DNA from: Octopus vulgaris
Taxonomy: Eukaryota
Direction: 5' to 3'
Length of the DNA: 64,000 nt
Assembly (NCBI GenBank): GCA_951406725.2
Contig: OX597816.1
Span: 147,622,001 to 147,686,000, forward strand
A model generated the notes under the pieces. It was given only the letters and a program-made list of their open reading frames with translations. It made no database searches and was not told where the DNA came from. Both the position numbers and the translations under genes were made by a program. Positions 1-58,423 of this stretch are shown here, in pieces; the first letter of the stretch is position 1, and every line of letters starts with the position of its first letter.

Positions 1-1352
1 GTCAATTACTGAAATATGTCAGCTTGACAGAAAAATACGAAAACTGTTGACAATGCATAGAATGCATCACCCTAAGGCAGATACAGAACGACTTTATCTG
101 CCAAGAAAAGAGGGAGGCCGTGGTCTTTTACAACTGGCAATAACAATGAAGATTGCTACAATTAGCCTAGACACCCCATTGAAAAAGTCTGAAGAATGGA
201 TGTTAAAACTTGTCTCAAAACATGAAAACAAGAAAGCATCATACTCAGTAACAAAACAGGCAAAGGAATATCTAAGTGAATTCCGAATACAACAAATTTA
301 GGAATTAGAGATAGACATACAAGAAACAAGCACAGAAAAAGCTAAGCGCATGAAAACCCGTGCCAAAACTGCGGCCTTAGATATTCTGAATAATAAATAG
401 CAAGAAAAACCTCTCTATGGCAAATACCCAAAGAGAGCGAATAATGCAGATATTGACAAAGCCCTGACCCATCATTGGCTAATGGCCTCTGGCTTAAAAT
501 CTGAAACAAAGGGGTTTATCATAGCAGCTCAAGATCAATGCCTACCAACAAGAAACTACCAGGCCAACATATTAAAGAACGGCAGTAACCCAACATGTCG
601 TGTATGTCGACAACAAAATGAAACCATTGATCATTTTGTCTCCAAGTGCAGTCTTCTAGCGCCTACAGAGTACCTCAACAGGCATGATAGAGCTTCACAC
701 TATATTCACTGGGTAATTTGCAAAAACCTGGATTTGCCCCATGATAAAAACTGGTGGGAACATAATCCACCTCCAGTGCTTGAAAATGACCACATCTCGC
801 TCCTCTGGAACTTCACCATTCAAACTGAGAGAAAGATAGATGCAAATAGGCCAGGCATCATATTGAAAGACTTCAGACAAAGAACATGCCTCCTCATTGA
901 TATTACTGTCCCAATCGATATAAATGTATCTGTCAAGACCTACCAAAAACTGAGCAAAATATAAAGATCTTGAAATAGAAATCAGCAAAATGTGGAAGCT
1001 GAAGACTAAAACAATACCTGTTGTCATAGGTGATCTGGGAATAATAGCGAAAGGGGCTGATTGCTACCTAACTCAGATACCAGGAAACTTCAAAATGGCA
1101 GAAATTCAAAAGATAGTGCTCATGGGAACTGCTCATATCCTACGCAAAATACTCTCTATGTAATCCCAAGGTTTAAAACAAACTTTTTTTTAAAATTTAT
1201 TTATTAGACATTCACTAGTACAACACCAAAAAGAAAACAAATATATGGCACACTAGGCATAACAACAACGTGAACTTCCAACCTGTTGTCTCTTGAGGTC
1301 TCTGGGTGAGACTTGGAGCCAACTTGTACAAACATAAAGCAAAACGTCAAAC

Positions 1353-30722: not shown

Positions 30723-30833
30723 AAATAATTAATTCGAAAATGTGCCTTTACAACGAAACAGAAACACAACGAACCAGAAATTAACAAACAAAACAACGCT
30801 TCGTCTTCGGACACACATACACGAGGTTCCAAA

Positions 30834-33800
30834 ATGGTGAGCCCCGTCGCCGTACAGATGAATTTACATCCAACCATGAATTGGGACTCCATTGATATCG
30901 TGGAAGCGTTTAAGAAATTTAAACAGAAGACTCAGCTAGTTTTCAAAAGTTTCCTGAAAGGCATAACTGACGAAGAAAAAGTGAGCTATATCCTTTTATG
31001 GACGGGCGAAAAAGGTCTAGACCTATTCAACGGCTGGGACATGTCAGAAGCGGATTGCAATAACCCAGACACACTTCTTGAGAAATTTGAAAGGCACCTA
31101 GAGCCCAGGTCGAACCATAGAATTCACAGATACGAATTCCAGGGCCTGAAACAAGACCCACAAGAGACGATTGACAATTTCCTGTCAAGACTGAAGAATG
31201 TTGCAGAGAAGTGCAAATTCAGAGACAAGGAGGAGAGGATTGTTGACCAATTAATATGGGGGTGTGCCCACAAAGAAGTACAAAAATCCCTCATAGGGAA
31301 AGACACTCTCCAGTTGATAGAAACAGTAGACACTGCAAAAGCATTCGAAGCCACTACCAAACAAATGGCCTCACTTACCTTACAAACAAGCTCACTTAAC
31401 AGCAGTGTAGATATTGTATCTAGCCACAGGACGAAACATACCCGCAAACAAAGAACATGCCAGTACTGTGGTACAGATCATGAATTTAATAACCGAAAAA
31501 AATGTCCTGCATTCGGTACACACTGCAAAGCATGTGGAAATCTTAACCACTGGAAAAAAATGTGTAAGTTGACAAAATCCCAGAAATACAAGCCCCAATT
31601 TTCAAAGAGGAGCGGAAATAGAAGAAGATATATACATGCACAACAACAGGAACAAAACACCTCAGAAGAGAAATTCTTGGCAGTCGGCGCAATAAATGTG
31701 CATGAGATGGGAAAGGACGACCAGAAAGAAAATGAGGCATACACAACAATAAGAATTCAAAAGAAGTCTGGAAAGAAAAGAATAAACATTGACTTAAGGC
31801 TGAAGATTGACACTGGAGCCCAGAGTGATATCTTGCCTGTCAACTTTTACAAGAAGATGTTCCCAGAACACATGACAGAAGAGGATAAAATCGAAGAATG
31901 AATTCTCACACCAAGTGATGTAATCCTCACTGCGTACGGAGGTACCAGGATTCCACAACTGGGTAAAACAACAATTACAGAGACACACAAAGTAAAAATA
32001 ATCAAGTGTTCTTTTTATGTCACAAGAACAAAAGGCCCAGCAATTCTTGGACTCGATACCTGCAAAAAGCTAAATAGTGTGTCAATCAATGGTGAAGTGA
32101 AGGCAACTCCGAGCAGGATAGACAGAGATACGCCTATCAAAGACCGACCACCAATCACAAACAAAGAGGAATTAATAAGCATGTACCCTGAATGCTTTGA
32201 CGATACAGTCGGGTGCTTTGTGAAATGTCGATACCATATAACAGTCGACCCCGATATCAGACCAATTGTTCACCCACCTCGCCGCATCCCTCTAGAACTA
32301 AAAGAGAAGCTGATGACAGAGTTGGACAAAATGGAAAAAAAGGAAATAATCACCAAAGTGACACGACCAACAGACTGGGTAAATTCAATTGTGATCAAGG
32401 AAAAACCCAATGGTACCCTACGGATATGCCTCGACCCAAGGGACCTGAACAAGGCATTAAAAAGAGAGTACCATCCAATTCCAACCCTTCAAGAAATCAC
32501 ACCATCATTGGCTGGGTCCAAATTATTCAGCAAACTGGATGCCAGTAATGGGTACTGGAATATAAAGATAGACGAAGAGTCATCCATGCTCACTACCTTC
32601 AACACACCATTTGGCAGATATCGATTCAACCGACTCCCATTTGGATTGAAGGTGAGCCAAGATGTTTTCCAGCGCCAAATAGATGAGACCTATCAAGGCT
32701 GCAAGGGAGCAATTGGAATAGTATATGACATCCAAGTGCATGGTAAGGATGAGACCACACATGACTTCAATTTACATGAAGCTATGGAGAGAACCCGACA
32801 AGCAGGCATCAAACTCAATGCAGCCAAATGTGTGGTAAAAGCAGAGGAGTGCAAATTCTTTGGAATTATATACTCTGCAGAGGGAGTTAAACCAGACCCC
32901 GCTAAAGTGGAAGCCATCAGAGACATTAAAGATCCTAAAGACAGGAAGGAACTCAGGAGCTTCCTGGGACTCATCAACTACATGGGAGCTTTCATACCCA
33001 AGCTGGCCGATCACACTGGAAATCTCAGAGAACTAAACAGAGATGACGTAGAGTTTGATTGGTGTGCTTCACACATACAGGATTTTGAAGCAATCAAAAA
33101 GCTCATCAGTAAGGAGACAACTTTGCAATACTATGACAGACGCAAACCAGTAACACTCCAAGTCGATGCATCTATGAGAGGAGTTGGCGCAGCACTGATA
33201 CAGGAAGGTAAACCCATTGCATATGCCTCGAAAGCTCTTTCTCTCTCCCACAGAGACAAGGTACGCAAATATTGAAAGGGTACTCCTGGAAGTAGTATAT
33301 GGATGTGAAAAGTTCCCTACATAGCTGTATGGCAGACATTTCAACATTGAAACAGACCATCACCCGCTAGAACAAATACATAGAAAAAAACCTCATGAAA
33401 GAACCAGCCAGACAGCAAAGATTACTGTTAAGGCTTCAAACATATGACTATGATATCAGGTACAAGCCAGGAAAAGACCTGATATTGGCAGATGCTCTTT
33501 CCAGATTATCCTCACATGATAAACAGGAGATGGAAGGACTAAGCATAAAGGTCCACCACATTATAAATGTAACGACTACAAAGCTAGCAGAAATCAAAGA
33601 GGATACCAGGAAAGATGAAGAGCTCCAGCTCTTTACTCAGATGGTGATTGAGGGGTGGCCAGAAAAGAGACATCAGGTGCAGCCCCTAATTCGTGAATAT
33701 TGGGCCATCCATGATGATATATCAGTGGAGAACGGAATCCTGTTGGCGGGATCCCGAATAATAATACCTAAGTCAATAACAAAAGAGATTCTTGACAAGA

Positions 33801-34951
33801 TCCACAAAGGGCATCTAGGAATGGAGAAATGTAAGCTCCTAGCCAAGTCAGCAGTATATTGGATAGGCATGTACAAAGACATAGAAAAGACAGTTTCTAC
33901 ATGCCACATTTGTCAAAAGTACAGAAACTCACAACAAAAAGAGGAAATGATGTCTAGTGACATCCCGAGAAGGCCATGGCAAACTATTGGAGCAGATCTG
34001 TTCACAGAGGGTCAAGAATGGTATTTGATAATGGCCTGCTACTACTCCAAATTTCCATTTGTGAGAAAAGTGAAAGACCTGAGAGCCAAAACAATCACAA
34101 CAGTGGCTCGAAGACTTCTAGCAGAGCAAGTAATACCAGAGCAGATCATATGTGACAATGGAACCCATTTCACATCGCAAGAATTCAAAAAGCTGGCCGA
34201 TGAGTATGGGTTCAATATTACAACTTCATCTCCACACTACACAAAAGGCCATGGGTTTATAGAAAGACAGGTGCAGACAGTGAAGAGAACACTAGTCAAA
34301 TGCCGAGAGACTAAGGAAGACCCACACCTGGCACTTCTGTCCCTACGAGCGACACCACTGAGAGCTGATATGAAATCCCCAGCAGAATTGCTGAATGGCA
34401 GGAAGTACAAAACTACCCTGCCAAGTAAGATCCAACCTCCCATTGACCAGGAAGAGACAAGGACAAAGTTAGCAGCCACTCAAGAACACTCGCAGAAATA
34501 TTACAACAGACATGCACAATACTTACCTGAGATACTTAGAGGACAACATGTACATACTCAAGATCCCATAACTAAAATATGGATTCCAGCACAGGTTGTC
34601 AGAAAAGCTGAAACCCCAAGATCGTATATAATAGAAACGGAATCTGGTAGGCAGCTGAGACGCAACAGGGCCCACATTCGCCCAACACGAAAGCTGTTGA
34701 GGACAACGTATACAACACCTGCTGCATCAGTGACAACACCCACAGAATTATCACCCCAACGGGCACCAACCACCCATCAGCAGGCAACATGTACAACACC
34801 TACAGCATCGGTGACAACACCCACAGAATCATCATCCCAATGGACACCAACAACCCATCAGCAGCCCAACAACACACCTCAGACACCGGTGCGAAGCACA
34901 AGATCTACCAGATGGAGAAAAAACATCCTGCCACCGGTTCAATACCGTTAA
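30834..34951 (+). pseudogene. gag-pol polyprotein broken by a premature stop (31899-31901) and frameshifts
   Basis: Two CCHC knuckles, protease KIDTGAQ, RT LRICLDPRDLN/RLPFGL/IVYDI, RNase H VDAS, integrase HHCC and DLF/DNG/ER. Confidence 0.93.
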
Positions 34952-38469: not shown

Positions 38470-39716
38470 GAGAGCTTGAACAAAATAATGGAAACACCTT
38501 AAAATTTTAAACGAATTTATTTTAATATGGGGTAGGACCACCTTTGGCAGTAATTACAGCTTGAATTCTACGAGGTATAGTCTTGTACATAATTTGAATT
38601 GTTTCCAAAGGAATTTTTGTCCATTGTTCAGCTAAAACAACCTCCAGGTCTTGCGGTGATGATGATGAAGGATATCGATTCCTTACTTGTTTTTCTAAAA
38701 TGCACCAGAAATGTTCAATAATATTAAAATGTGGGGACTGTGCTGGCCAGTTAAGATGTTCAGCTTCACGAGAATGTTCATCCTCGTGCCATTCAGTAAC
38801 AGTTTTAGCTGTGTGAATTGGTGCATTTTCATCCTGAAAGTTTGCATTTCCCTCCGGAAGCAGTTCCGCAACCATAGGATTAATTTGATCTGATAAAAAG
38901 CTTAGTCATGACTCTTAATTCAGCCATGAAGGGAAACCGTTGGGCCTGTGGATTCCCAAGATATAGCACAACCCCTCCCAGTTCATCACAGATCCTTCTT
39001 CATGTTTAACAGTTGGAAGAAGGCAGTCTGGGTCAAATGCCTCTTTTGGCAGTCTCCACACGTATACTCGGCCGGTCGTCGGAAATAAGGTAAAGGATGA
39101 CTCGTCCGAGAAAACAACATTCTTCTTCTGCTCTAGGAACCAACTTGTAGGCTTTTACTCCAGTCTAAACGCTTTGCAACGTTTGTTTTTGTAAGTAGTT
39201 GTTTTCTGATTGCAGCGCTCCCGTGAAATCAGGCTATATGCAGCTCCCGGCGAACAGCTTTTGTGGAAACTGGATTCTCATTAAGCCCTACAGTAATTTT
39301 GGGAGCTGTACTTTTCTGATCCTTTCTAACATTTCGCGTAAGAGTCTGGCGGTCCCAATCTGAAACTTTTGATTTTCTTTTGGAGATTTGTTTCGACGAA
39401 GATGTTTTTCTCTATTTCTCAAAGGCTGTCATTACTTTCGAAACAGTACTTCATATACCAAACATTTCAGCTGTTTTCGTTATTCTAGCTCCGACAATTT
39501 GACCTCTTTGAAAGTCCGATAGATCTGTCATTTTAATAAATTTTAATTACTTTTTGCTGATGATATCTGAAAAGAAACACGAATTTAAGTAAAACATATT
39601 AAGCAACACTAATAATAAATAAAAATATATATATACAAGCTTTTGACGGTTTTATAGATTTTTCAAAATTATGATGCTATGATGCTAGGTATTCCCATTA
39701 TTTTATCCAATCCCTG
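38470..39716 (-). mobile_element. Tc1-like DNA transposon with disrupted transposase (39531-38522)
   Basis: TIR CAGGGATTGGATAAAATAATGGGAATACCT followed by TA at right, degenerate copy at left; MTDLSDFQRGQIVGA, FSDES, FQDENAPIH, WPAQSP..NIIEHFW. Confidence 0.9.
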
Positions 39717-39762: not shown

Positions 39763-40199
39763 TATATGTATGTGTACAGAGAGAGAGAGAGAGAGAGAGA
39801 AAGCCCGTTAAGTGGCCTGTTCCTCTAATGTTTCTTGGTGAGCAACCACTTAACTGCGCAAACCCGACGAATGAATCAATGACGAAGAAAATCTGTGAAT
39901 TGACAATAAATGAAATTATAGAAAACGAAAGCAAAATATTCAAAGCGAAAGAAAATTTTCCTAAAAGGACTGGCAGAACCCGTGATGAGATCCTGATGGC
40001 AACTCCATTAAACCACAGTCATGCTAATTATAAGGCTAGCGCTCGACCCAGCTCTCATACTCCAATAAAAAAATTACCTATTTCGAGCAAGCCTGTTCAC
40101 TGGGACTATACTCGCCAAACTCATGCCTCTCTCAACAAAGTTGCTGGGCCTCTGCACTTACATCTCCGCCACCATTTTCCTTTGGAAATGAAACATGAA

Positions 40200-40720
40200 A
40201 ATTTGATGAGCAATTAGCCAAGAAAATGACCATTTAGTGTCGTCCACCACATAATGTCTTCGGCTAAGTTCACCAGGTAGTTGAATTTGTTTGCTTCCCT
40301 AGTCAACTGAATATGTGAGGACTATCTTTACAAAGGAAGCAGCTAATAGCCAGATCCGTTCTAGCGCAATAACAAGTATTCCACTTAAGTCAGCAATGCT
40401 CGTGTACCTTACCGAAAAGTGCTAGACAATTTCACTGCTCTGCGCGCATCATGACGGAGCCAGTTAACGATATGTCATACCTATAGGAACGCCTTCTTTG
40501 AAAATCTGCCACGCCAAGGAAGTCTGAACGGTATCCATAGACGGCAGCCCAAAAGGCCTCCAGAACATACGAGATAGTGGATTTTTATCATCGGTTAGAT
40601 TTTTCCCTGAGTAAGTCGTCGCTTCTGTCTACCTCTTATCCTCTATAGAACATAAATCTGAAAGTCACTTCTATGGAAAAGGGTTGTGAGGGCTTCTCAT
40701 AATATATACTATGCACTCTG
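40200..40720 (-). mobile_element. Degenerate Tx1/L1-like ORF2 C-terminal remnant
   Basis: FQTSLAWQIFKEGVP followed by a decayed zinc-finger region. Confidence 0.5.
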
Positions 40721-43053
40721 TCTCAGTATTTTCTTGAACCAGACACATCAAAGAAACGAGCTAATGAATACAGCAGCGTTTTCAACAACTGTAACAAGGA
40801 GGAAGACAACAACAATGGGAGAAAGAAGGGAGTTACACATAACGCATATTACAAACAGATAACATAGTGAGAAAGAAAATGTTTACAAATTACGAAAGAA
40901 GAAGATAAAACAGAGATGAATTATGAAGTATAAAGGATAAACGCACACATATACACTTGCAAAATATGCACAAACACACTTTTGCATATTCACAAGCACG
41001 CACGTCCAGATGAGTAGAAGCAAGCTTGAAGGAAATTTAATAAGTAGAAGGGAAATTAACGACTACAATAGAATATACAAAAATTAAAATAAGAGATAAT
41101 TTAAAGAAATAAATGTGTAAGTTTTCCGCTTAAAGTGCGATAGGTCACTCCATCACCTATTCACTTATCCATTTCTGAAGTAGTGTTCGAGTGCGCCCTA
41201 ATGCACCAGTAAACATTTTTTTCAAAACATTCGTATTGAAAAGCAAGAACCATCAAGTTGAAAGTATTCTTTATAAATTGAGTAATTTCTTAATTATTAA
41301 TATTATTTCTTTTTTTGCAAGTAATCTATTTTTCGGCGTGCTGATATTCTAAAATTAATTGTTTTGGTGCAACAGAGATGTGTAAGGTTATTTACTATTT
41401 ACTTGGTTGGCTGTTAACACTAACTTTTACACTATCAACTGTAAATGCATTCTCAGTTACGTCATTAACATGTTTGGGAAAAATATGAAAGACAGAATTG
41501 CCTGTTTCATAATTCATATGAATTCTGAATATTTTATACAGAGACAGAATTTTATTTGTTTGAAATCTCTCGCTATAACTGCACATCTAAAAGACGCCTT
41601 ATCAAGTGAGTTGCTAGAGTATTTATAAGATTCCATGCATGTATATTTTGTATATAATTCGGGTTTGAATTTCTGTGCTGCAAGAAACACTACCTTAAGG
41701 CATTAGAAATATAAAATCTAGTCAACATTTATCAATAATATTAGAGTTTATATATTAGGTTATATTATTTAAAACGTTGCTGTCGATGTTGTTATTAGAG
41801 CCTCTAAAATCGTGTTCATCAGTTTTAGTGCTCATCTCGTTTCTCTTCTCTTCATCATAGGCTGATATTGTTTTACTTATAGTTGTTGTTCGCCAAATAT
41901 TTTAGACATATACTTAGATTTAAAATTTATGGATTTTCACGACACAAAAAGCTATTTGATAAATCAAGGGGCTACCTCACCGTATCGGGCACTGTTAATC
42001 GAATTTGATAAGATTTCAACTGAAAAACATATTTATAAAATTTTAACGCATATATTCTAGAATTGGACAGTTGGAACATATATTGACATATGATATTTTC
42101 AAATTATAAATACCACAGAATAAATAATAAATATGCAAACAGTTTCACAAAAAAGCAATCCAGTATATATTCTACAAAGAAATTAATGAAATCTGTTCTG
42201 ATACCAGATCAATTGCGTCAACTGCACACCTGATGCTTTTCGCAAGAGAGCAGCATCCAAATGTCGACAAAGTTCATGCGAACAAACGTATGGAAGCACA
42301 AATATATTGTGTGCTTATTTTATCCTACCACATTCAGACTAAATGCATATAAGTCGACGGTTTCAAGCTTTTCTGAATATGATTTGGGTATACATATTCA
42401 TAACTATATCCACACGCTAACATATTCACGCATGCCCAAACACACACATACGCAAGTATGTATATAAAGGGTTATATATTCTCAAACTAAGATGCATGTA
42501 TGTTTCTTATCGTGTGTGTGCAATCTTGTATATACGCATACAAGTATGCATATTTTATTTATTTCGATCGGTTCTCTACTTTTCCATCCCTTTTAATCAA
42601 TTCCGACACTAGTAGCAAACTGAAACTTACGCTCTTTGTATACTGCACGTTTATTCTACCTATTCTATAAGCTATTTTCTAATTTATGGAACTGTCAGTA
42701 TAACGGTTGATTATTTTCCTTATAAGTCAAGGGTCCAATTTTCCAGAAGAATTGCCTTAACTAAAATAAGTCTTAAAATCTAAGCAGAATATGTTGAAAA
42801 TATTTTTCCAAAATCACCAATGTAAAAATATAACTAAGCCCCATATCCTTTGTGTCCAAAACAAATCTCTCTGTTGCGATGGACGTGAACAGATGACTAC
42901 ACGTTTCATCCGGGACATATAGTGGTTTCCGTGTCTATTCCCTTCGAGACGAAGTTTAATTTAAACTGTTATTCATTCAGCAATTGTCGATATCACATGA
43001 TTCTGGTGAAATACATTAATCAGCGGCATGCACTGGAACAAACCACTTTCCCA

Positions 43054-43123
<70 letters not shown>

Positions 43124-43169
43124 TGCACCCTGCCACAAGCTGGTATAGATAGAATTATGCAACGGAGGT

Positions 43170-43791
43170 TTAATCTTTTACCCTGACCCTAGAAGGATGC
43201 CTCCCAAAGTATATGGTTAGAAGCATTACTTCATCCGTTTTTAAGCGTGTTGCCGAGTGCAGCCTAGCAGTAGCTACCTCTCCTGACTGCACCTCCACTC
43301 TTCCAAATTTTTTTTCCTCTGGTAAGTTAAGACATCCCTTGCCAGATTGTTTTTTAAGCGACTTGAGCGTTCGACATGATTTCCATTCTCTATGTTGTTG
43401 CTGAGTACGTCCTATAAATGTTTTTTTTTCTTTTTTCTTTTAAAATATTTTTGGTGGGGGAACACTTTTATGTCCCCTCCCTTTTAATTATTTCTTTGAA
43501 TCTACTCAACTCCTTCAGGAACACTTTCCTCTTCGCTTTTCATTTTTAACCTCCTCTGCATAATTCTTCACCTCCATTGCTTCGTCTATTCTCTTCAGAC
43601 TTTTAACCAGCTCTTCCTCAGACGATAGAAAGTCTGAAGAAGAACTCTAGCCTTCGTATTCCATTACGAAGTCACGAACTCACGACATTCCCTCATTAAA
43701 CAAAAGGAAAGACGTCGAACAATACTGCCGCAAGGCGGCAAAACACACGTGGTCCACATAAAGGCAGCAGTTCAACAGCAATCAACTAGAC
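43170..43791 (-). mobile_element. Unit C: 5' part of an ORF1-like Tx1-type element, 3'-truncated
   Basis: IYRTYS..KFGRVEV..LLTIYFGRHPSRVRV homologous to units A and B. Confidence 0.7.
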
Positions 43792-45240
43792 GACTACCAA
43801 ACGCTCTCTATTTCATTTTATTGGCCACTGTGGACCCTACACAGAAGGCACAAACAACGATAGACAATACATGTGGGGACATATAACATAAACGAATGAA
43901 TAAAATGAATTTACATAATGGATGAAGGTGCAATGGCTACTCGAAACCTCGCTCTCGAGTAGTACCGTTTAACTATATTTTTCTTCCTTTTTAAACTAAT
44001 GTTTATAACATTAATTTATCTTACTATATAAAATATGGTGTCAATTATTAAAATTCCATCACAGGCGGTAGATAATCGTATCTTACCTCTCGTCCTAGTG
44101 GGTTCACATCATTGCTAAAACTTCACTTTAATCTTTTGTAATTTATTATGTCTATTAATATAAACTCCATGCCTGGTACCCTTACATCGTCGTCTCCTAT
44201 AATTCTTATTACCGTTTTCATTTTTGTAATTTTTTTTTTCAATGGCCGTGTTCGACTAATAGTGCGTTAGATACGCTATATGTTTATAACTGGCCTGTAA
44301 TGTTTGTCTGTCTGCTTGCGTGTATGTTGGTGTGTATTTAACAAAAGATTCTGGGCTGCATGTATGTGTTTGTGTATACTTGACTGGGGGTGCTGGTTTA
44401 TCTGTGTGTGATGGAGATTCTAGGTTGTCTTGGATATTCTTGTATTTTTGCCGTAATGGAATATACTGTATGGGGGCTTGTATGTTTCTTCTTCCATTTT
44501 GCTTTTCTTTTGAGTTCCTCCTGGCGGGGGAGCTTTTAAAGACCTTCTTGTTTCTGTTTTGCGCTTTGTGGAATCCTTCATTTATGCTTCCTAAATTGGC
44601 CTCTTCCCTATTTTCCTTTAATTCCTCGCCTCTTATTTTCTTCTTGCTTCTCCTCTACTGGTATCTGACTATTCGCCTTTATGTGTCTCTTTTTTTCTGC
44701 AGTGGTAACAGGTGGAAGGTCCTCCATCCACCACCACTTGCAACTTCACAGCAGGAAAGCGCACTTCCACTGTACCAAACTTTCTTCATCTGCAGTAAAA
44801 TTCAATGTCACTTCTTATATCTTCTAAGTACTCTTTTACAGCTTCCTCGCTAGCCATTTCTATTTTCTTGCTTCTCAGTGATAGGGTTCTATAAACCACC
44901 ATTTCCCCCTTTTTACTTGTATCTTCCGGCGAGGTCAGTTTTAAACTTGACCCCTCTCTTTAGATTAATTTTTTGCTGCTTCTTACTATTTCAAAATCGA
45001 CAGGTACTTCCCTGACTTTCAGTTGATTCACAGTAGCTGCTGCATTTTCTCTGCCTGCTACTGAAGCGTAGCTCCCGCCACGTGTTTGCAACACTTCCAT
45101 TGCTTAATACTATTCTCTCTTCCACTGGGGGAGAAAACAAAACAAAAGCAAACAATACAACAAAGGTTCAACAATTTCAACAATAGGCCACGTCGCTAGG
45201 GAGGACCTTTAACAAAGGACAACATAATAATTTAACACGG
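43792..45240 (-). mobile_element. Unit B: ORF1-only Tx1-like element with 5'UTR, decayed ORF and 3'UTR
   Basis: MEVLQTRGGSYASVA, VVYRTLS..KFGTVEV, CYHC..H knuckle, C-terminal LPPVMEF, 3' hairpin, AATAAA; no EN or RT motifs seen. Confidence 0.75.
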
Positions 45241-46635
45241 GACTACCAAAACGCTCTCTATTTCTTCATTAAGCACTCAGGTTCATACACGGAGGGGACA
45301 GCACAAAGACAGGCAGAAATTAACAATGGGGACAAAAATATAAAAAGAATGAAAAATGAATGATGTATAGTATAAATGATGGTGGAATGGCTGCATTGAA
45401 CCCCACTCTCAAGCAGTACCATTTAACAGTTAAACTATAAACTAAATCTTTCTTACACTGTCTTTTTTCTTTTAGCATCGCTTTTTTTCTTTTTTCTCCT
45501 TTTTTCCCTTGGAAAAGTCTATTATTTCTCTTTTTCTCTCCTTTTTACTTGGGAAAGTCTATTTTTCTCTTTAAATTATTATTATTTTTTTTACTTACTT
45601 TACTCTTTTTAACAGTTCATAAAGGGTTTCAAATCTTCAAACTCCACGACCGGTGGCAATTCGTCAAATTCGACTTTTACCCCAAACGGGTCTATACTAT
45701 TTCCGAACAGTTCTTCAATTTGTCATATCTATCCTTGTCAATAATTATTCCTTTGGTTTCTTCTGAATATTTCCCGGTGGTAACCTTACTCTTGTAACTG
45801 ATTTAAACTTCGCAATCTTCCGCTCGATTGCCATACTTTTGGCATATGTGACAATATGCTCCTTTTTTTTGTTTTTTCTGTTTTAACATCCCTTTGCTTC
45901 AGCGACAGATCTGGGCTGTCCGCACGAGTCGTTCTACTTGATTCTTCTCTTAGTCCACAAAAATAAGCTTCAATGTCTAAGTCTTCCACATCGTAAGTGC
46001 TGATGTTTCTGCTTCCACTCTACGTTCCATTGTTGATTCTGCTGGTGTCTCGCACCTATTCTTGTCCTCCTCTATCTCAATCCCCTTCATCCTCTTCTAA
46101 CTCTCCGGCGGAGAGGTCACCAGTTCTTTCCTCTTCCTCCTATTTACGACAGTGAATGATTCCTCAACTCTATCTTTCTCTCTTTCCGGTATTTCCATTT
46201 CGGCAATGTTTTTCCCTTTTCTGCTCATCTTCGTTTTCTTTCTGGAGGCACCATGCTTTTAAGTGTCCCTTTTTACTTCATCCTCTATTCTGTGCATCAC
46301 TGCTGCCACTAGCCATACTTCATTAATCTCGGGGTGTACTCTGCCAATTCTTACTCTGGCGACGCGTTTGACACAGTAAGTCGGCAGAAGTACCCATTCC
46401 GCTGTTCTTTTCGGCTCAGTGGCGTGATTTATCGCGTCTTCTTTGCTAAATCCTACTTCCACTGTGCCGTATTTCTTTCAACGCGTATAAAATGTGGTAA
46501 GCCGCTTTATTTCCTTGAAGCACTCCTGTATTGTCTCTATTAATGCAGCCTCTATCTTTCTAGAGGACGTAGATAACGTTCTGTACACCATTGTCCACTT
46601 TGCCACATTGTTCGTCAAATCTTGCGGTGAAGACA
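45241..46635 (-). mobile_element. Unit A: 5'-truncated ORF1-only Tx1-like element
   Basis: MVYRTLS..KYGTVEV..LLPTY..RVARVRIG, CHICQKYGNRAEDC knuckle-like motif, C-terminal LPPVVEF, 3' hairpin; no EN or RT motifs seen. Confidence 0.75.
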
Positions 46636-46749
46636 ATAATAATATGTTATGGCGAAAATGTGGATAATCTTTGACTTCTAGAATGTATGTATGTATGTAT
46701 GTATATGTGCAAATTGTATGTTTTGTTTTATGCATGTATTCTCATGCAT

Positions 46750-47010
46750 ATAGTTACAGGTCTAGACATGTTCATATATACTTAAAGGATAAACGTCTGG
46801 AAAGTCTTACATATTTTTTACAACTCCAGTGATGGATTGGATCTGTAGTCTTCGAATCAGCTTTCTCCTTTCTGGTTTTCAGAAGCCCAATTCCTCGAGA
46901 TTGGTATCTAGACAGTGTTATATATCCTAATACCCCAATAATTACAGGTATAAACCTGAACTTATACTTTGGATAGAGTAGTTGTAGATCCCTAAGTAGA
47001 TCCTTCAGCG
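46750..47010 (-). mobile_element. REL-type LINE extreme 3' end
   Basis: LLRDLQLLYPKYKFRFIPVIIGVLG..LQIQSITGVVKICKTF then stop. Confidence 0.7.
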
Positions 47011-48599
47011 TAGGAACTTTTCATACATATATACATACGTACATGTATTATGTATATAAATATTGAAGAGGCCTATATCTGGTTAAACTTCAAAGTCACC
47101 TTCAACGTATGGCATCCAGATAAAAAGAAAATTTCAGAGAACTTTTATTTAGTTAGATAATGTGGATTCATTCATACATCCCTGCCTTAGCTGCACCATT
47201 ATAATGTCCTTGACCCCCTACTAACATAAAAGAGAAAGCTATTTTAAAACACCGTTTCTTGTAACATGTTTGTAATCTCATAAACGCTTTTCTCTCAACA
47301 ATCTTCAAATGATTTCTTATCTCTCTTGATTCTTAAAATCTGAATCTTTGTTTCGAATTGAAAAATGTGATAAATGTTGTCTTTTTGACATATACAGAAT
47401 CAGGTATTGCATCAAATGTTACTGAACAGCATTCGATCTTTGATCTGTCAGAGAGTGTGTGTTCCTAAACAAGACAGGAGAAACAGAAATAAACGTTGTG
47501 AATCAACTGAAAAATTATGTGCATGCAATATTTCCCCATTTTCCGCGCTTTTTTTCTCTTCCTGGTGTGCGTTTCAAACGCAGGGTGCCAGTGAGACAAA
47601 AGGTCAATCAATTTGAAAATATCATCATTGTGATAATCATTGATGAGATAGGATCTACAAATATTAGTCCATCTAGACTCGCCTGCTACCATCTTTTTAT
47701 AGAATCTGTTTCATGCTTGTGCTTTAATGAATTCTGTTTTTATGCTTTCCTTATGAAAAGCGGTCGAGTTCAGAAATGCAAATACTTTTTCTTTTTTTTT
47801 CTCCATCAGGCTATACATTCTATGTTGTTAAAGCTAATGCATTTTCACTTTCACATTTACATCAGCGATATCGGGCCTGTATATTCTATCTGTTTTATGT
47901 TCACATTGGCCAAATGTGACCTCTCACACCTTCCCTACAATGTCAATCTAAAAATAAACAACAATTTTATAAACATTACAAAGCTAAAAGATAATGTGCG
48001 TTTAACTCAAAACAATGTGGATTTATAAGCATTACACTTAACAGAGAAATGGGTCAGTGTTATCGCGACTTTTCCAAAGATACTATGAAGTAAGCTTGCT
48101 TGCTTCGTTACACTAACGAATCACTTCCTGACATCTCGCCATTTTGAGTGCGTGAAAATGTATCAGCAATAAATATTTGCTATTCTCGGTCGCTTAGACA
48201 TGTTTTTCAAATCAGAATATGCTCTTTATGTTTATGCACTTCTTTGTATGAAGGGTTCTACTTGATTTCAGCCTTCGTATTGTTTATGAACTATTGTAAT
48301 AACTTACTTTAAAAATATGAGCCTTTTATTTGGATAATAGATTTAGTCTGAGATCTCTCACTCAGTATCCTTTTAGTTTGTGTTTGTCCATCTGGATCAA
48401 CATGAAATGATAAATGTTCATCTATTTTTCTCAGTAGATGAAGTATTGTCCAATCAACATTTGGTACTTGAACGACTTAAAATACTCAACGAAAAACATG
48501 CCCAATTTTACTTCGTTTTCGAGACACCATTAGTTATAGTAATCATTGGTCTTTAGCCTAACAGAATTAGCTTTCTGATTCGTTCCATCCAGGATATTA

Positions 48600-49220
48600 T
48601 TCTCAAGAACTACAGCATTGGAAAATAGAGGCAAATGTGGCAATGTCGGAACATTGAGGTATATACTTCCCAATTGCCCACTAGGTTTGGACCATAGATA
48701 GACATGGCAATATAGCCAAGTACTAAGACTGATGCAGTAACTGTCTGAGTGTGACAAGTAAATTAACAACGGCAAAATATTACAGGAAATGGAGAATGGG
48801 AAGATAAACTCCTGCAGCGATAGTGAACGCTGGAAGCCAGTCACTGTAAAGAAGAATAGTCCAGTATAGAAGAGAGTTGTAGAAGGTCTCTGTCTAGAAT
48901 TGATGGTAAATATCATTCGACTCTTTTCGTCACCAAAGTACGTGACCTCGTCGTAAGGTGCAAAGAAAGAATTGCACTAAAGATTGTACATCTAACAATT
49001 CTCAGGGAAGAGAATATTGAAGACACTTTCCTGAAGGAAGATAAAAAGTGCAGTGAGCTGTTTGTATTCTGTAAAAACAATATATGGGGGACAATGTGTC
49101 TTGCCGTAGAGACAAGTGTTAGAGGATTCCATGGAACTAGTATTGACTGGATGCTCAGTAGCCTTGGAGTAACTGCGAAAGAGAGAAAAGATGTTGACAG
49201 AATATTCTCGAGTCAGACGT
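48600..49220 (+). mobile_element. HERO-like REL LINE C-terminal remnant
   Basis: TLRYILPNCP..W.YSQVL, EENIED, AVETSVRGF resemble HERO TL.HIL..C / VEVGCRGF motifs. Confidence 0.55.
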
Positions 49221-49879
49221 AACTGAAAATCCAGAAAATTACACCCGACTCATGAGTGACGATGAGTGGCGATGCAAGATCGAGCATGATACAGATAACT
49301 GACCAGATTTGCAGCAAAACCCAAAACTCAACAAAACTCGTACTGTTGTGTGGGGCTTTTCTTGCCTACATTAGTGAGTGGCCTTAGACGACCTTTGTGC
49401 CACCACAGAGGAGGCAAAAACATATACAGAGCTATTTCACCGTCTGATGACATCTAATTCTGCTTTCGAGGATGGAGTACAGCAACACCTTCAGCATACA
49501 AGTGAAAACGCTAAAATGCTTCCTTACGTAAACTCTTTCCTGAAAAAATTGCTATCACTTCCATATACACTGCATATCGCTATTAGCAACTCATCGTTAC
49601 CCTCCTTTGTACTGCTTTAGCTGCCAAAACTCTCTTACTGCCATTTTATTTCATTCTATTTAGATTATTTTCCTCTCATTTACATCATATTTATATCATA
49701 TTTAATGTATACTGCTTTATTTCACCTCCACTATTTTCATTTTGTTACATTTCCTATCCCTTTTTAATCAATTTTGATTTACATTTTATAACTTTTTAAT
49801 ATTCTATATTTATATGAAGTTACAATGCATTTATCACATTTTGTCATATATTTTCAGAAAAGAAACTACAATATATCAT

Positions 49880-50215: not shown

Positions 50216-51824
50216 TGCCATTTATCATTCATCAGCTTCTACCATTTATTATTTTCCCTTTACCCATTCAGCTCAATCATTGCTTTCATCCCTCCAATGC
50301 AGCATATTATTCTTCAAATATTTTTTAGGTTTCTTTCTCACAAACCTTTTACATACAAACAGATTTTAGTTATTCCCTAACTGTACGTCAGTGCAATAAA
50401 TAAGTATGTGTATAAATAAATGTGTGACTATGTATGAGTACATGCATGTGTGCGTACTTATGCGCGTAGTGCATATGCATATATATTAACGCGTGTTTTT
50501 GTGTAACTAACAAAGTGTCAAAATGCAAAATACAAGGATCAAGAAAATATTTAAACTTTTCTACAGCGAGCGTAAGGATACGAGCGTGCGCCAACATGTG
50601 CAGAAAATGTATATAAATGCGTATATTTCTGTATATAAATGCGTATATAAATGTGCGTGTATGTGTGTGATCATGCGAGTACTTAGGTACAAGTCTGGGT
50701 AAATGAATTCACACACAAATGAGTATGAGATGAGAATGAAAAAAATCCCAATAATGCCGCAGCAAAATTATTTCCTATCTGATCTGCTAATTGACATTAA
50801 ACTGGTCGTTCAGACAGTGAATGACTTCTATCGTCTTTACTCTACTTGACAGCAAATCTATACAAATGTTACTTGGTACAACAATGAACTCCTGTGTATA
50901 TGAATGTATTGCTGTCTGCGTTTATTATCTATTCCACATTTGCTCATAAATTTATTTATATGTCGATTCATCAGCACATCTGTGGTCCTCTTTAATTGAT
51001 ATAATCATATATTGCATCGACGACTTGCACTCCATACTTCACATCTTCTTTTATAATATTACACAATAAATACAAGAATATTGCGACTCTCCAACGCATA
51101 CACACAGCATCCCATCAGGATCCAGTTTTATACCGAACTAGTTTCATATTTCTCGGTGTTTCCTCATTTATATTTCCTTGAAATATGAAATAACATCTTT
51201 TCCCTAAGCGGAAATGTAAACAAAACCGGATTTTAGTAAACGCAATTTTTAATCCACAGCATGATATATTTGTCATAAGCACATGGTATAGCTTTCAACT
51301 TAACAATCATACACATACTCCCTGTTTTCCTCGTAATATATTTGCACTTATTTTGGTTTTCGCTATTTTAACGTTGTGAATCTTTCATTTTTACAAATAA
51401 TTAATAAAAACGATGTTTATAGAAATGTATTTATGTCTAAATTGGAATGATGAAATAATTAAATTTAGGACCAGCTCCAAAAAAGAGCAAGTAGCTGAGA
51501 TCTTAATGCTTTAATAAATAGCGAACTGCATCTAGAAGCGGAGAAGGAAGTGGTTGTAAGATGGCAAAAGAAGCCATTTTCTTCAAATTTGAAGATATTG
51601 TCGCAATAGCAGTGATCAGAATTATTCGAGTTAATTAAGTCATAAGAAATTTACTTCTAGGAAAACGAAATTATGATGACGAAGACGACGGTGGAAGCGA
51701 CGTTGAGGACAACAACGATGATGATGTTGAAGATGTGGATGAGTATGATGATGGCAGGATGATGTAGATTACTGTCTATGGTGGAGTTGGTGACGAAGAC
51801 ATTTGTATCAGAAGACATTTGCAA

Positions 51825-52270
51825 CCACCAATAGAAGAGAATATGACCAAGAACTGCGTGTACTCCATCCCATGCAGCTGTGGTAACTTATACAAAGGCG
51901 AAACATGCCGGCCCCTCAAAATAAGGGTAGAGGAACATCGCAAAGCTGTGACACTAGGAGATATTGATTAATAGGGTATAGCTGATCATGTATGGAAAAA
52001 TGGAGACCACCTCCACTGTGGGATGATGTTAAAATAATAGACAGAGAACACCACTGGAATATACGAAAACTAAAAGAAGCAGCCTATATTCTAGGACACA
52101 ACAACCTCCTAAGCAAACAAAGTGCAGATATGAATAGCATATGGGAACCTGTATTAGATTTATAAGCCCTAAAATTCACTCCATAATTGACCGCGGGCAT
52201 GCGACGTAGTGGTTAAGAGCGCGGGCTACAAACCCAAGCTGTGATAATAATCACATCGAAAAATACCTTT
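51825..52270 (+). mobile_element. Penelope-like 3' fragment (GIY-YIG plus partial tRNA-like terminal repeat), same family as 13981-15625
   Basis: CVYSIPCSCGNLYKGETCRPLKIRVEEHRK; GGGCAT..GTAGTGGTTAAGAGCGCGGGCTAC; CATCGAAAAATACC. Confidence 0.88.
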
Positions 52271-58106: not shown

Positions 58107-58423
58107 CTATTGATGGCATTCCGTCGGTTACGATGACGAGTGTTCCAGTTGATCCGATAAACGGAACAGCCTGCTGGTGAAATTAATGTGTAAGTGGCTG
58201 AGCACTCCATAGACTCCTGTACCCGTAACGTAGTTCTCGGGGAGATTCAACGTGACACAGAGTGTGCCAAGGCTGGCCCTTTGAAATACAGGGACGACAG
58301 AAACAGAAAAAAAGAGTGGTGAAAGAGTACAGCAGGGTGGACCCCCTGCTAGTCTGAGAATCGAAACCGCAATCCTAAGACCGCGAATCAGCTGCCCTAA
58401 CCAGTGGGTTATTGCGTCTCCAC
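58107..58423 (-). mobile_element. tRNA-derived SINE
   Basis: Minus head GGAGACGCAATAACCCACTGGTTAGGG..GGTTTCGATTCTC followed by a GC-richer body. Confidence 0.75.

Follow-up and report, generated by a model that had tools for sequence, protein, structure and literature searches.

A 64,000-nt window of the Octopus vulgaris genome (assembly GCA_951406725.2, contig OX597816.1, positions 147,622,001 to 147,686,000 of the forward strand), consisting of microsatellite-rich animal DNA, carries between positions 46651 and 43170 of its minus strand three homologous units, here called A, B, and C, arranged head-to-tail on the one strand. Each holds the remains of a predicted open reading frame 1 (ORF1) of a long interspersed nuclear element (LINE). 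An earlier note made from the sequence alone had proposed three minus-strand units sharing the protein motifs YRT.S...E, K(F/Y)G.VEV, and, in A and C, LL..Y..R..RVR; the homologous units lie where it placed them, and all of these motifs are present in them. In a search of sequencing runs, 20 of the 24 runs listed contain the stretch or part of it, and 8 of the 24, from 5 studies and 3 organism codes (one of which may be the source), contain at least half of its words. No RNA run is listed among those containing it, which has no bearing on expression. Since 8 runs from 5 studies contain it, an old locus common to close relatives is suggested rather than an assembly artefact. The chain of fossil ORF1-type retroposons from three subfamilies is real.

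Read in the direction of the chain, the ORF1 remnant of unit A (45609–46651, minus strand, as are all features of the chain) has lost its 5′ end and retains a first RNA recognition motif (RRM1) and the first half of a second (RRM2). The second half of RRM2 and the family's real zinc knuckle have been deleted, after which a charged linker leads into a frameshifted C-terminal domain running to the stop position of the family; the first half of this domain (45772–45858) matches the database protein P0057 at E 0.10 and a profile at an independent E-value of 0.004. An A-rich spacer of 181 nt (45428–45608, approximately 55% A), in which no endonuclease remnant is seen, is followed by the first copy of a shared T-rich tail (45241–45427), the putative 3′ end of A, containing a predicted hairpin at its 5′ side, AATGAA, and then a conserved junction motif. 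Unit B opens with a T-rich 5′ leader of 140 nt (45101–45240), and its ORF1 remnant (44021–45100) has a start ATG, an N-terminal SYA motif, RRM1, an in-frame deletion of about 98 codons (profile positions 114–211), a decayed knuckle at 44710, a low-complexity linker, and the C-terminal domain to the family stop position. Its A-rich spacer is 47 nt (43974–44020), and the second copy of the tail (43792–43973), the putative 3′ end of B, again has a predicted 5′ hairpin, here with AATAAA, and then the junction motif. Unit C consists of a 127-nt leader (43665–43791) and an ORF1 remnant (43170–43664) in which a probable ATG, an N-terminus with a frameshift, and RRM1 are followed by the first strand of RRM2, where the unit ends at 43170; the 3′ part is absent and a TA/TG microsatellite follows at 43054–43120. 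A pyrimidine tract ending in AG about 30 nt before the ATG of B (45100–45160, minus strand) resembles a splice acceptor.

In the first domain, A and B are 45% identical (E 7e-9), A and C as well as B and C 29%, and A and B also have a weaker C-terminal motif in common. The profile of a single protein family matches all three units, at E 7e-43, 2e-27, and 8e-25; unit C is weak by pairwise match but clear by this profile (E 8e-25). Word-index protein searches gave 1, 0, and 3 matches, and the family emerged only with a full HMMER search of 1.84 billion representatives, for which the query profile was built from the three units and the gene model P0005. This recovered 327 relatives at E ≤ 0.001 (clusters at 50% identity). 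A species name was attached to 17 of the 30 proteins looked up, and all 17 were Octopus: O. bimaculoides, O. vulgaris, or O. sinensis.

The long members without interruption, P0038 (404 aa), P0063 (623 aa), and P0086 (603 aa), have in order an N-terminal SYA motif, two alpha/beta domains, a CCHC knuckle, and, after a low-complexity linker, some 80 residues that form a conserved C-terminal domain. In its AlphaFold model (predicted local distance difference test score 72), P0038 contains two beta-alpha-beta-beta-alpha-beta domains, and tandem-RRM structures are the top Foldseek matches of this model (E 1e-4). The C-terminal domain (residues 326–403), which has no Pfam name, appears there as a helix followed by a long beta-hairpin and a second helix. 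The knuckle stands directly after RRM2 in 10 database proteins by motif, and Pfam finds zf-CCHC in 4 of 150 family matches; Atlas neighbours are zf-CCHC and ZCCHC3-like clusters (0.90–0.93). No Pfam family names the RRM part, Pfam returned nothing at cut-off for four translations from the window, and a sequence search of the PDB matched the knuckle alone. The portion of PMC5203782 drawn on here defines the type I ORF1 of LINEs and ties it to L1/Tx1, with occurrences also in CR1 and L2. Both of the features that mark type I are found in the family, the RRM in the P0038 model and its Foldseek matches and the CCHC knuckle after the RRM in database relatives; in the units themselves the knuckle is decayed in B, deleted in A, and absent from the truncated C. 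By structural modelling, the family is thus a type I LINE ORF1 of predicted RRM-RRM-CCHC layout, and its product a predicted RNA-binding protein with two RRMs, one knuckle, and a small C-terminal domain.

The units had been put forward as coding elements, which they are not: A, B, and C are all pseudogenes with stops, frameshifts, and deletions. One stop falls among the 130 codons of the first part of A, 3 in 147 plus 3 in 80 in B (6 in 227), and 4 in 118 in C, along with several frameshifts, and a simple simulation from these stop counts gives a rough decay of about 5–25% per copy. The CCHC knuckles claimed for A and B fared differently, in that the one in B (44710) is correctly placed, minus its last Cys, whereas the one in A is spurious. 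The A candidate (C at 45853) is not in frame with the C-terminal domain aligning at 45858–45772 and was rejected as a chance reading because it overlaps the start of that domain, aligned in the neighbouring frame. At one conserved Gly codon, in the motif RG(K/R)K(Y/F)G, both A (approximately 46478–46480, minus strand) and B (approximately 44786–44788, minus strand) read TGA where C and database relatives have Gly; because the flanking bases differ, these are probably two independent changes that happen to coincide.

The distances between the units bear directly on how the chain arose. Over 89 codons, A and B have a proportion of synonymous differences (pS) of 0.80 and of nonsynonymous differences (pN) of 0.33, a pN/pS of 0.41 (bootstrap 0.30–0.55), and identities by codon position of 61, 71, and 38%; local protein alignment favours conserved codons, but the drop at the third position is nonetheless large. 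For A and C (56 codons), pS is 0.91, pN 0.38, and pN/pS 0.41. Each unit has closer relatives elsewhere, at 57, 52, and 60% identity, and a clade uniting A, B, and C is rejected (approximately unbiased test, p 9e-6; a quick IQ-TREE analysis with 42 of 111 rows picked by hand), with FastTree on all 111 rows giving the same picture of units standing apart. From these ratios, relatives, and trees, the units represent three lineages, each long selected for its protein, that met here; as judged from the sequences, they are three distinct subfamilies whose ORF1 was under past purifying selection, which may predate or postdate the loss of ORF2. If a single defective unit had long ago been duplicated in tandem and its copies had then decayed neutrally, the head-to-tail layout, the similar tails, and the TGA at the same Gly codon in A and B would be accounted for, yet we give this almost no credence, because A–B synonymous sites are saturated while pN is far lower, provided that the codon alignment is right, and because the three-unit clade is rejected. 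The earlier judgement that the units are too diverged for a tandem duplication is upheld by the same two results.

What sets A and B apart from an ordinary LINE is what follows ORF1. The stop codon of both stands at the same position as in P0038, fourteen codons past a conserved Pro-Val motif, and only the A-rich spacers (181 nt in A, 47 nt in B) separate it from the shared tail, so there is no room for an ORF2 in either unit. Pfam finds no endonuclease or reverse transcriptase (RT) in the six frames of 40001–49700. The claim that A and B pass from ORF1 into a 3′ tail without these enzymes is accordingly confirmed by Pfam and by the tail itself; its extension to all units holds for A and B but not for C, whose 3′ end is missing, and the ORF1-only layout is seen in 2 of the 3 units because C stops inside RRM2. 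A weak parallel comes from P0086, which has no stop and lies on a 2209-nt contig with 397 nt left, compared with 369 noncoding nt in B.

It is conceivable that A, B, and C inserted here as normal, full-length L1/Tx1 LINEs and that their ORF2 was deleted afterwards, with no ORF1-only family ever having moved, since deletions are common in the A and B copies: each has a large internal deletion, and a deletion could also have taken ORF2, while C lost its 3′ part altogether. Full-length sources are also at hand, for the portion of PMC13282606 drawn on here reports 80 L1-Tx1 families in O. vulgaris (56.3 Mb), 13 of them active in recent times and averaging near 5.4 kb in length. Against this, A and B each preserve the ORF1 stop and a complete tail, 47–181 nt apart, with no ORF2 remnant, and the same layout occurs in two lineages whose synonymous sites are saturated. 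That a 3.5–4-kb ORF2 was lost twice independently, with breakpoints so near both ends, would be unlikely. Masters already without ORF2 are the simpler explanation, since two deletions would otherwise each have had to leave the ORF1 stop and the entire tail intact, and we regard the deletion scenario as improbable. We favor as reasonably probable the reading in which three subfamilies are represented by the decayed copies A, B, and C and in which A and B come from ORF1-only elements like the half-L1 (HAL1) of mammals. Because A and B carry a predicted RNA-binding gene and no copying enzyme, such elements likely spread with the enzyme of a LINE.

The two tail blocks, of 187 and 182 nt and the only copies of the tail in the window, are identical in 138 of 192 columns (E 7e-14), or 78% without gaps, which is far more alike than the A–B synonymous sites, and given the decay of the copies, the tails may have been nearly identical at insertion. 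This similarity could reflect a signal read by one partner enzyme or a swapping of tails between elements. A predicted hairpin, maintained despite changes in both of its arms, opens each tail, AATAAA lies near the end of the tail of B with AATGAA in that of A, and 23 of the last 24 columns are identical between the copies. The leaders of B and C start exactly at this junction motif, 140 and 127 nt before the ATG, and are not significantly similar to one another (p 0.14); nor is the similarity of the spacers significant. The junction motif of 17–24 nt is either a conserved 3′ terminus or a duplicated target. Rfam names no target RNA, giving only microsatellite-driven matches below gathering scores, and searches of viral, metagenome, and prokaryote collections recovered neither related loci nor the junction motif. 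A 7-nt word of the motif (43792–43808, minus strand) recurs in the hairpin loop of the B tail (43925–43950), which may be chance.

The boundaries of the units would differ if the 185-nt block instead belonged to the 5′ side of B and C, as their head or promoter, or were one of two terminal direct repeats flanking B in a gag-only element of the long terminal repeat (LTR) type. In favor of this, the block and the leader alike are T-rich, both come after A-rich sequence in which a decayed poly(A) tail or a purine tract might be seen, and the 22% difference between the blocks fits the copy decay estimated from stop counts (about 5–25%). The AATAAA near the end of the block speaks for a 3′ end, however, and B and C, which would then share the head, are the more distant pair (29%) with unrelated leaders. 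LTR-type elements are marked by terminal repeats that begin with TG and end in CA, and by a gag of capsid type; here neither block ends in CA, only one starts with TG, and the modelled protein is RRM-RRM-CCHC rather than capsid-type gag, so a gag-only LTR-type element was rejected, and we consider different boundaries of any of these kinds quite improbable.

A more serious alternative is that ORF1-only elements stacked here without sequence-specific targeting, the motif being a conserved 3′ end and the neighbourhood a product of chance or of a loose preference for A-rich or related sequence. It shares most of its content with the favored reading, and the weights of the two overlap. Neither a third copy of the motif nor a target-site duplication is seen, and the part of PMC13282606 used here puts repeats at about two thirds of the O. 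vulgaris genome. On the other side stand two junctions in succession on the one strand, both falling precisely where a full-length leader begins, and the gene model P0005, in which two same-strand units of the A subfamily lie in series, a hint of another stack. We think untargeted stacking rather doubtful though well worth keeping in view, and for site-specific targeting taken on its own, the chances are about even.

On the favored reading, a master element of about 1.7–2.2 kb comprising leader, ORF1, tail, and poly(A) signal would be transcribed, and the ORF1-only RNA would be packaged by its own ORF1 protein. The endonuclease/RT of a partner LINE would then recognise the tail and carry out target-primed reverse transcription in trans, and the tail would stay alike across subfamilies either because the same enzyme must read it or because it was swapped between them. 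Repeated insertion at one short site would place each new copy in front of an older one. The L1-Tx1 families of O. vulgaris are candidate partners, and derivation of the elements from L1/Tx1 is probable, although the Tx1 clade is defined by its RT and no RT is linked to the units here. AATAAA-type 3′ ends and ZCCHC3/DUF4283-like relatives are habits of the L1/Tx1 clade, and both the 3′ end of B and the ZCCHC3/DUF4283-like neighbours of the family point that way. Parent and partner could alternatively belong to another clade with type I ORF1, such as CR1, L2, or the Jockey group: CR1 and L2 elements carry every ORF1 type according to the portion of PMC5203782 cited, and CR1 is active in O. vulgaris according to that of PMC13282606. 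Given the features pointing to L1/Tx1, we rate such an origin as rather improbable. The boldest version of the argument, which we think unlikely as a whole and offer tentatively, would be an old and very large Octopus radiation of ORF1-only retroposons (hundreds of subfamilies with saturated synonymous sites), lacking their own RT, keeping or swapping one common 3′ tail for the same Tx1-type enzyme, and targeting the 5′ end of relatives to form interstitial stacks like those of HeT-A.

Several results weigh against the favored reading and its mechanism or limit the support for them. The layout evidence comes from a single locus, and P0005 is a predicted spliced model that does not give the spacing between its units. 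No endonuclease or RT occurs in any of the 150 family matches, a weak negative since ORF2 would be a separate frame and most matches are short fragments, and no fused form of 1092–3115 aa was found, which is weak for the same reason of a separate frame. Between B and C, the 43 poorly aligned codons give pS 0.56 and pN 0.51, with no clear signal of selection. A wide fold search with P0038 recovers the general fold only, its leading matches being ACT-type domains (Z 8.7), so it is Foldseek, together with the knuckle and the layout, that carries the RRM call. Folding of the whole tail is not superior to that of shuffled sequences (z −1.0 and +1.5), there is no poly(A) run between the signal and the next unit, and the extra conservation of the junction motif has p 0.002 for that window of columns but 0.10 for any window. 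Nor does a third junction motif occur within the stretch, whether at the 5′ side of A or after C; the outer ends of the chain are lost on both sides, and the motif stands at the two internal junctions only.

ORF1-only LINEs and tandem stacks of Tx1-mobilised elements are each already known. HAL1 is described in the portions of PMC5753468 and PMC5786205 used here as a nonautonomous LINE derivative of mammals that encodes ORF1p only and arose several times. Units A and B likewise pass from ORF1 to a 3′ tail without ORF2, but HAL1 derives from mammalian L1 with a type II ORF1, whereas the octopus family is of type I (RRM-RRM-CCHC), belongs to a mollusc, and is stacked head-to-tail. The passages of PMC5786205 drawn on here list HeT-A (Jockey), HAL1 (L1), and Ag-Sponge (CR1) as ORF1-bearing nonautonomous LINEs and do not mention Tx1. 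HeT-A of Drosophila and Ag-Sponge of Anopheles resemble the octopus units in being ORF1-only, and HeT-A is also reported to sit in head-to-tail arrays (PMC13534243, PMC5537684). HeT-A arrays are telomeric and grow by addition to chromosome ends, in contrast to the octopus chain, which is set within DNA rich in repeats and links three subfamilies that are deeply diverged. According to the portion of PMC4494074 considered, elements of the Tx1 clade commonly prefer particular targets, and tandem SINEU-3 insertions lie on either side of a target-site duplication. That tandem stacking of nonautonomous elements is the likeness here; Tx1L, Keno, Kibi, Koshi, and Tx1-Mar differ in carrying an apurinic/apyrimidinic endonuclease and RT, and SINEU-3 in having no ORF, while the octopus units have ORF1 only. 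A literature search found no description of the family or of a Tx1-derived ORF1-only element; Repbase, Dfam, and the Zenodo consensus library of PMC13282606 lay outside that search and may include the family. The portions of the text and supplement of PMC13282606 drawn on here describe no ORF1-only form, and the family may be among the L1-Tx1 families reported there or among its unknown repeats.

Other elements of several kinds lie in the window. The plus strand at 30729–34951 holds a nearly uninterrupted gag-pol with three long frames of 390, 457, and 526 aa, which we take from its motifs to be of Gypsy type. Just 5′ of unit A, at 46772–47020 (minus strand), and at 401–964 (plus strand) are LINE-like fragments that presumably represent the C-terminal restriction-like endonuclease end of R4/Dong-type LINEs, and a short TACA run lies at about 46683–46704; the fragment at 46772–47020 gives nothing by Pfam and does not align with that at 401–964. 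Broken transposase pieces at 38522–39411 (minus strand) are, we presume from their motifs, Tc1/mariner-like, and a short frame at 51768–51971 (plus strand) looks to us like the GIY-YIG end of a Penelope element. At 58125–58382 (plus strand), a 62% match to residues 183–263 of P0052 marks a second repeat taken into that gene model.

Octopus gene sets likewise conceal the family itself: its members appear there under the label "uncharacterized", and several of its relatives as false exons of WD40, LDL-receptor, and astacin models, so that naming the family helps annotation. Functional interest is limited, since the copies here are dead; the wider interest lies in what the family would say about LINE parasitism. 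ORF1-only LINEs are on record from three clades, L1, Jockey, and CR1, in the part of PMC5786205 cited. If the octopus elements are truly Tx1-type with many long-lived subfamilies, they would imply that an RNA-binding ORF1 pays over the long term for a parasite of LINEs, and the tail, common to lineages whose synonymous sites are saturated, would point to the RNA signal recognised by the partner RT.

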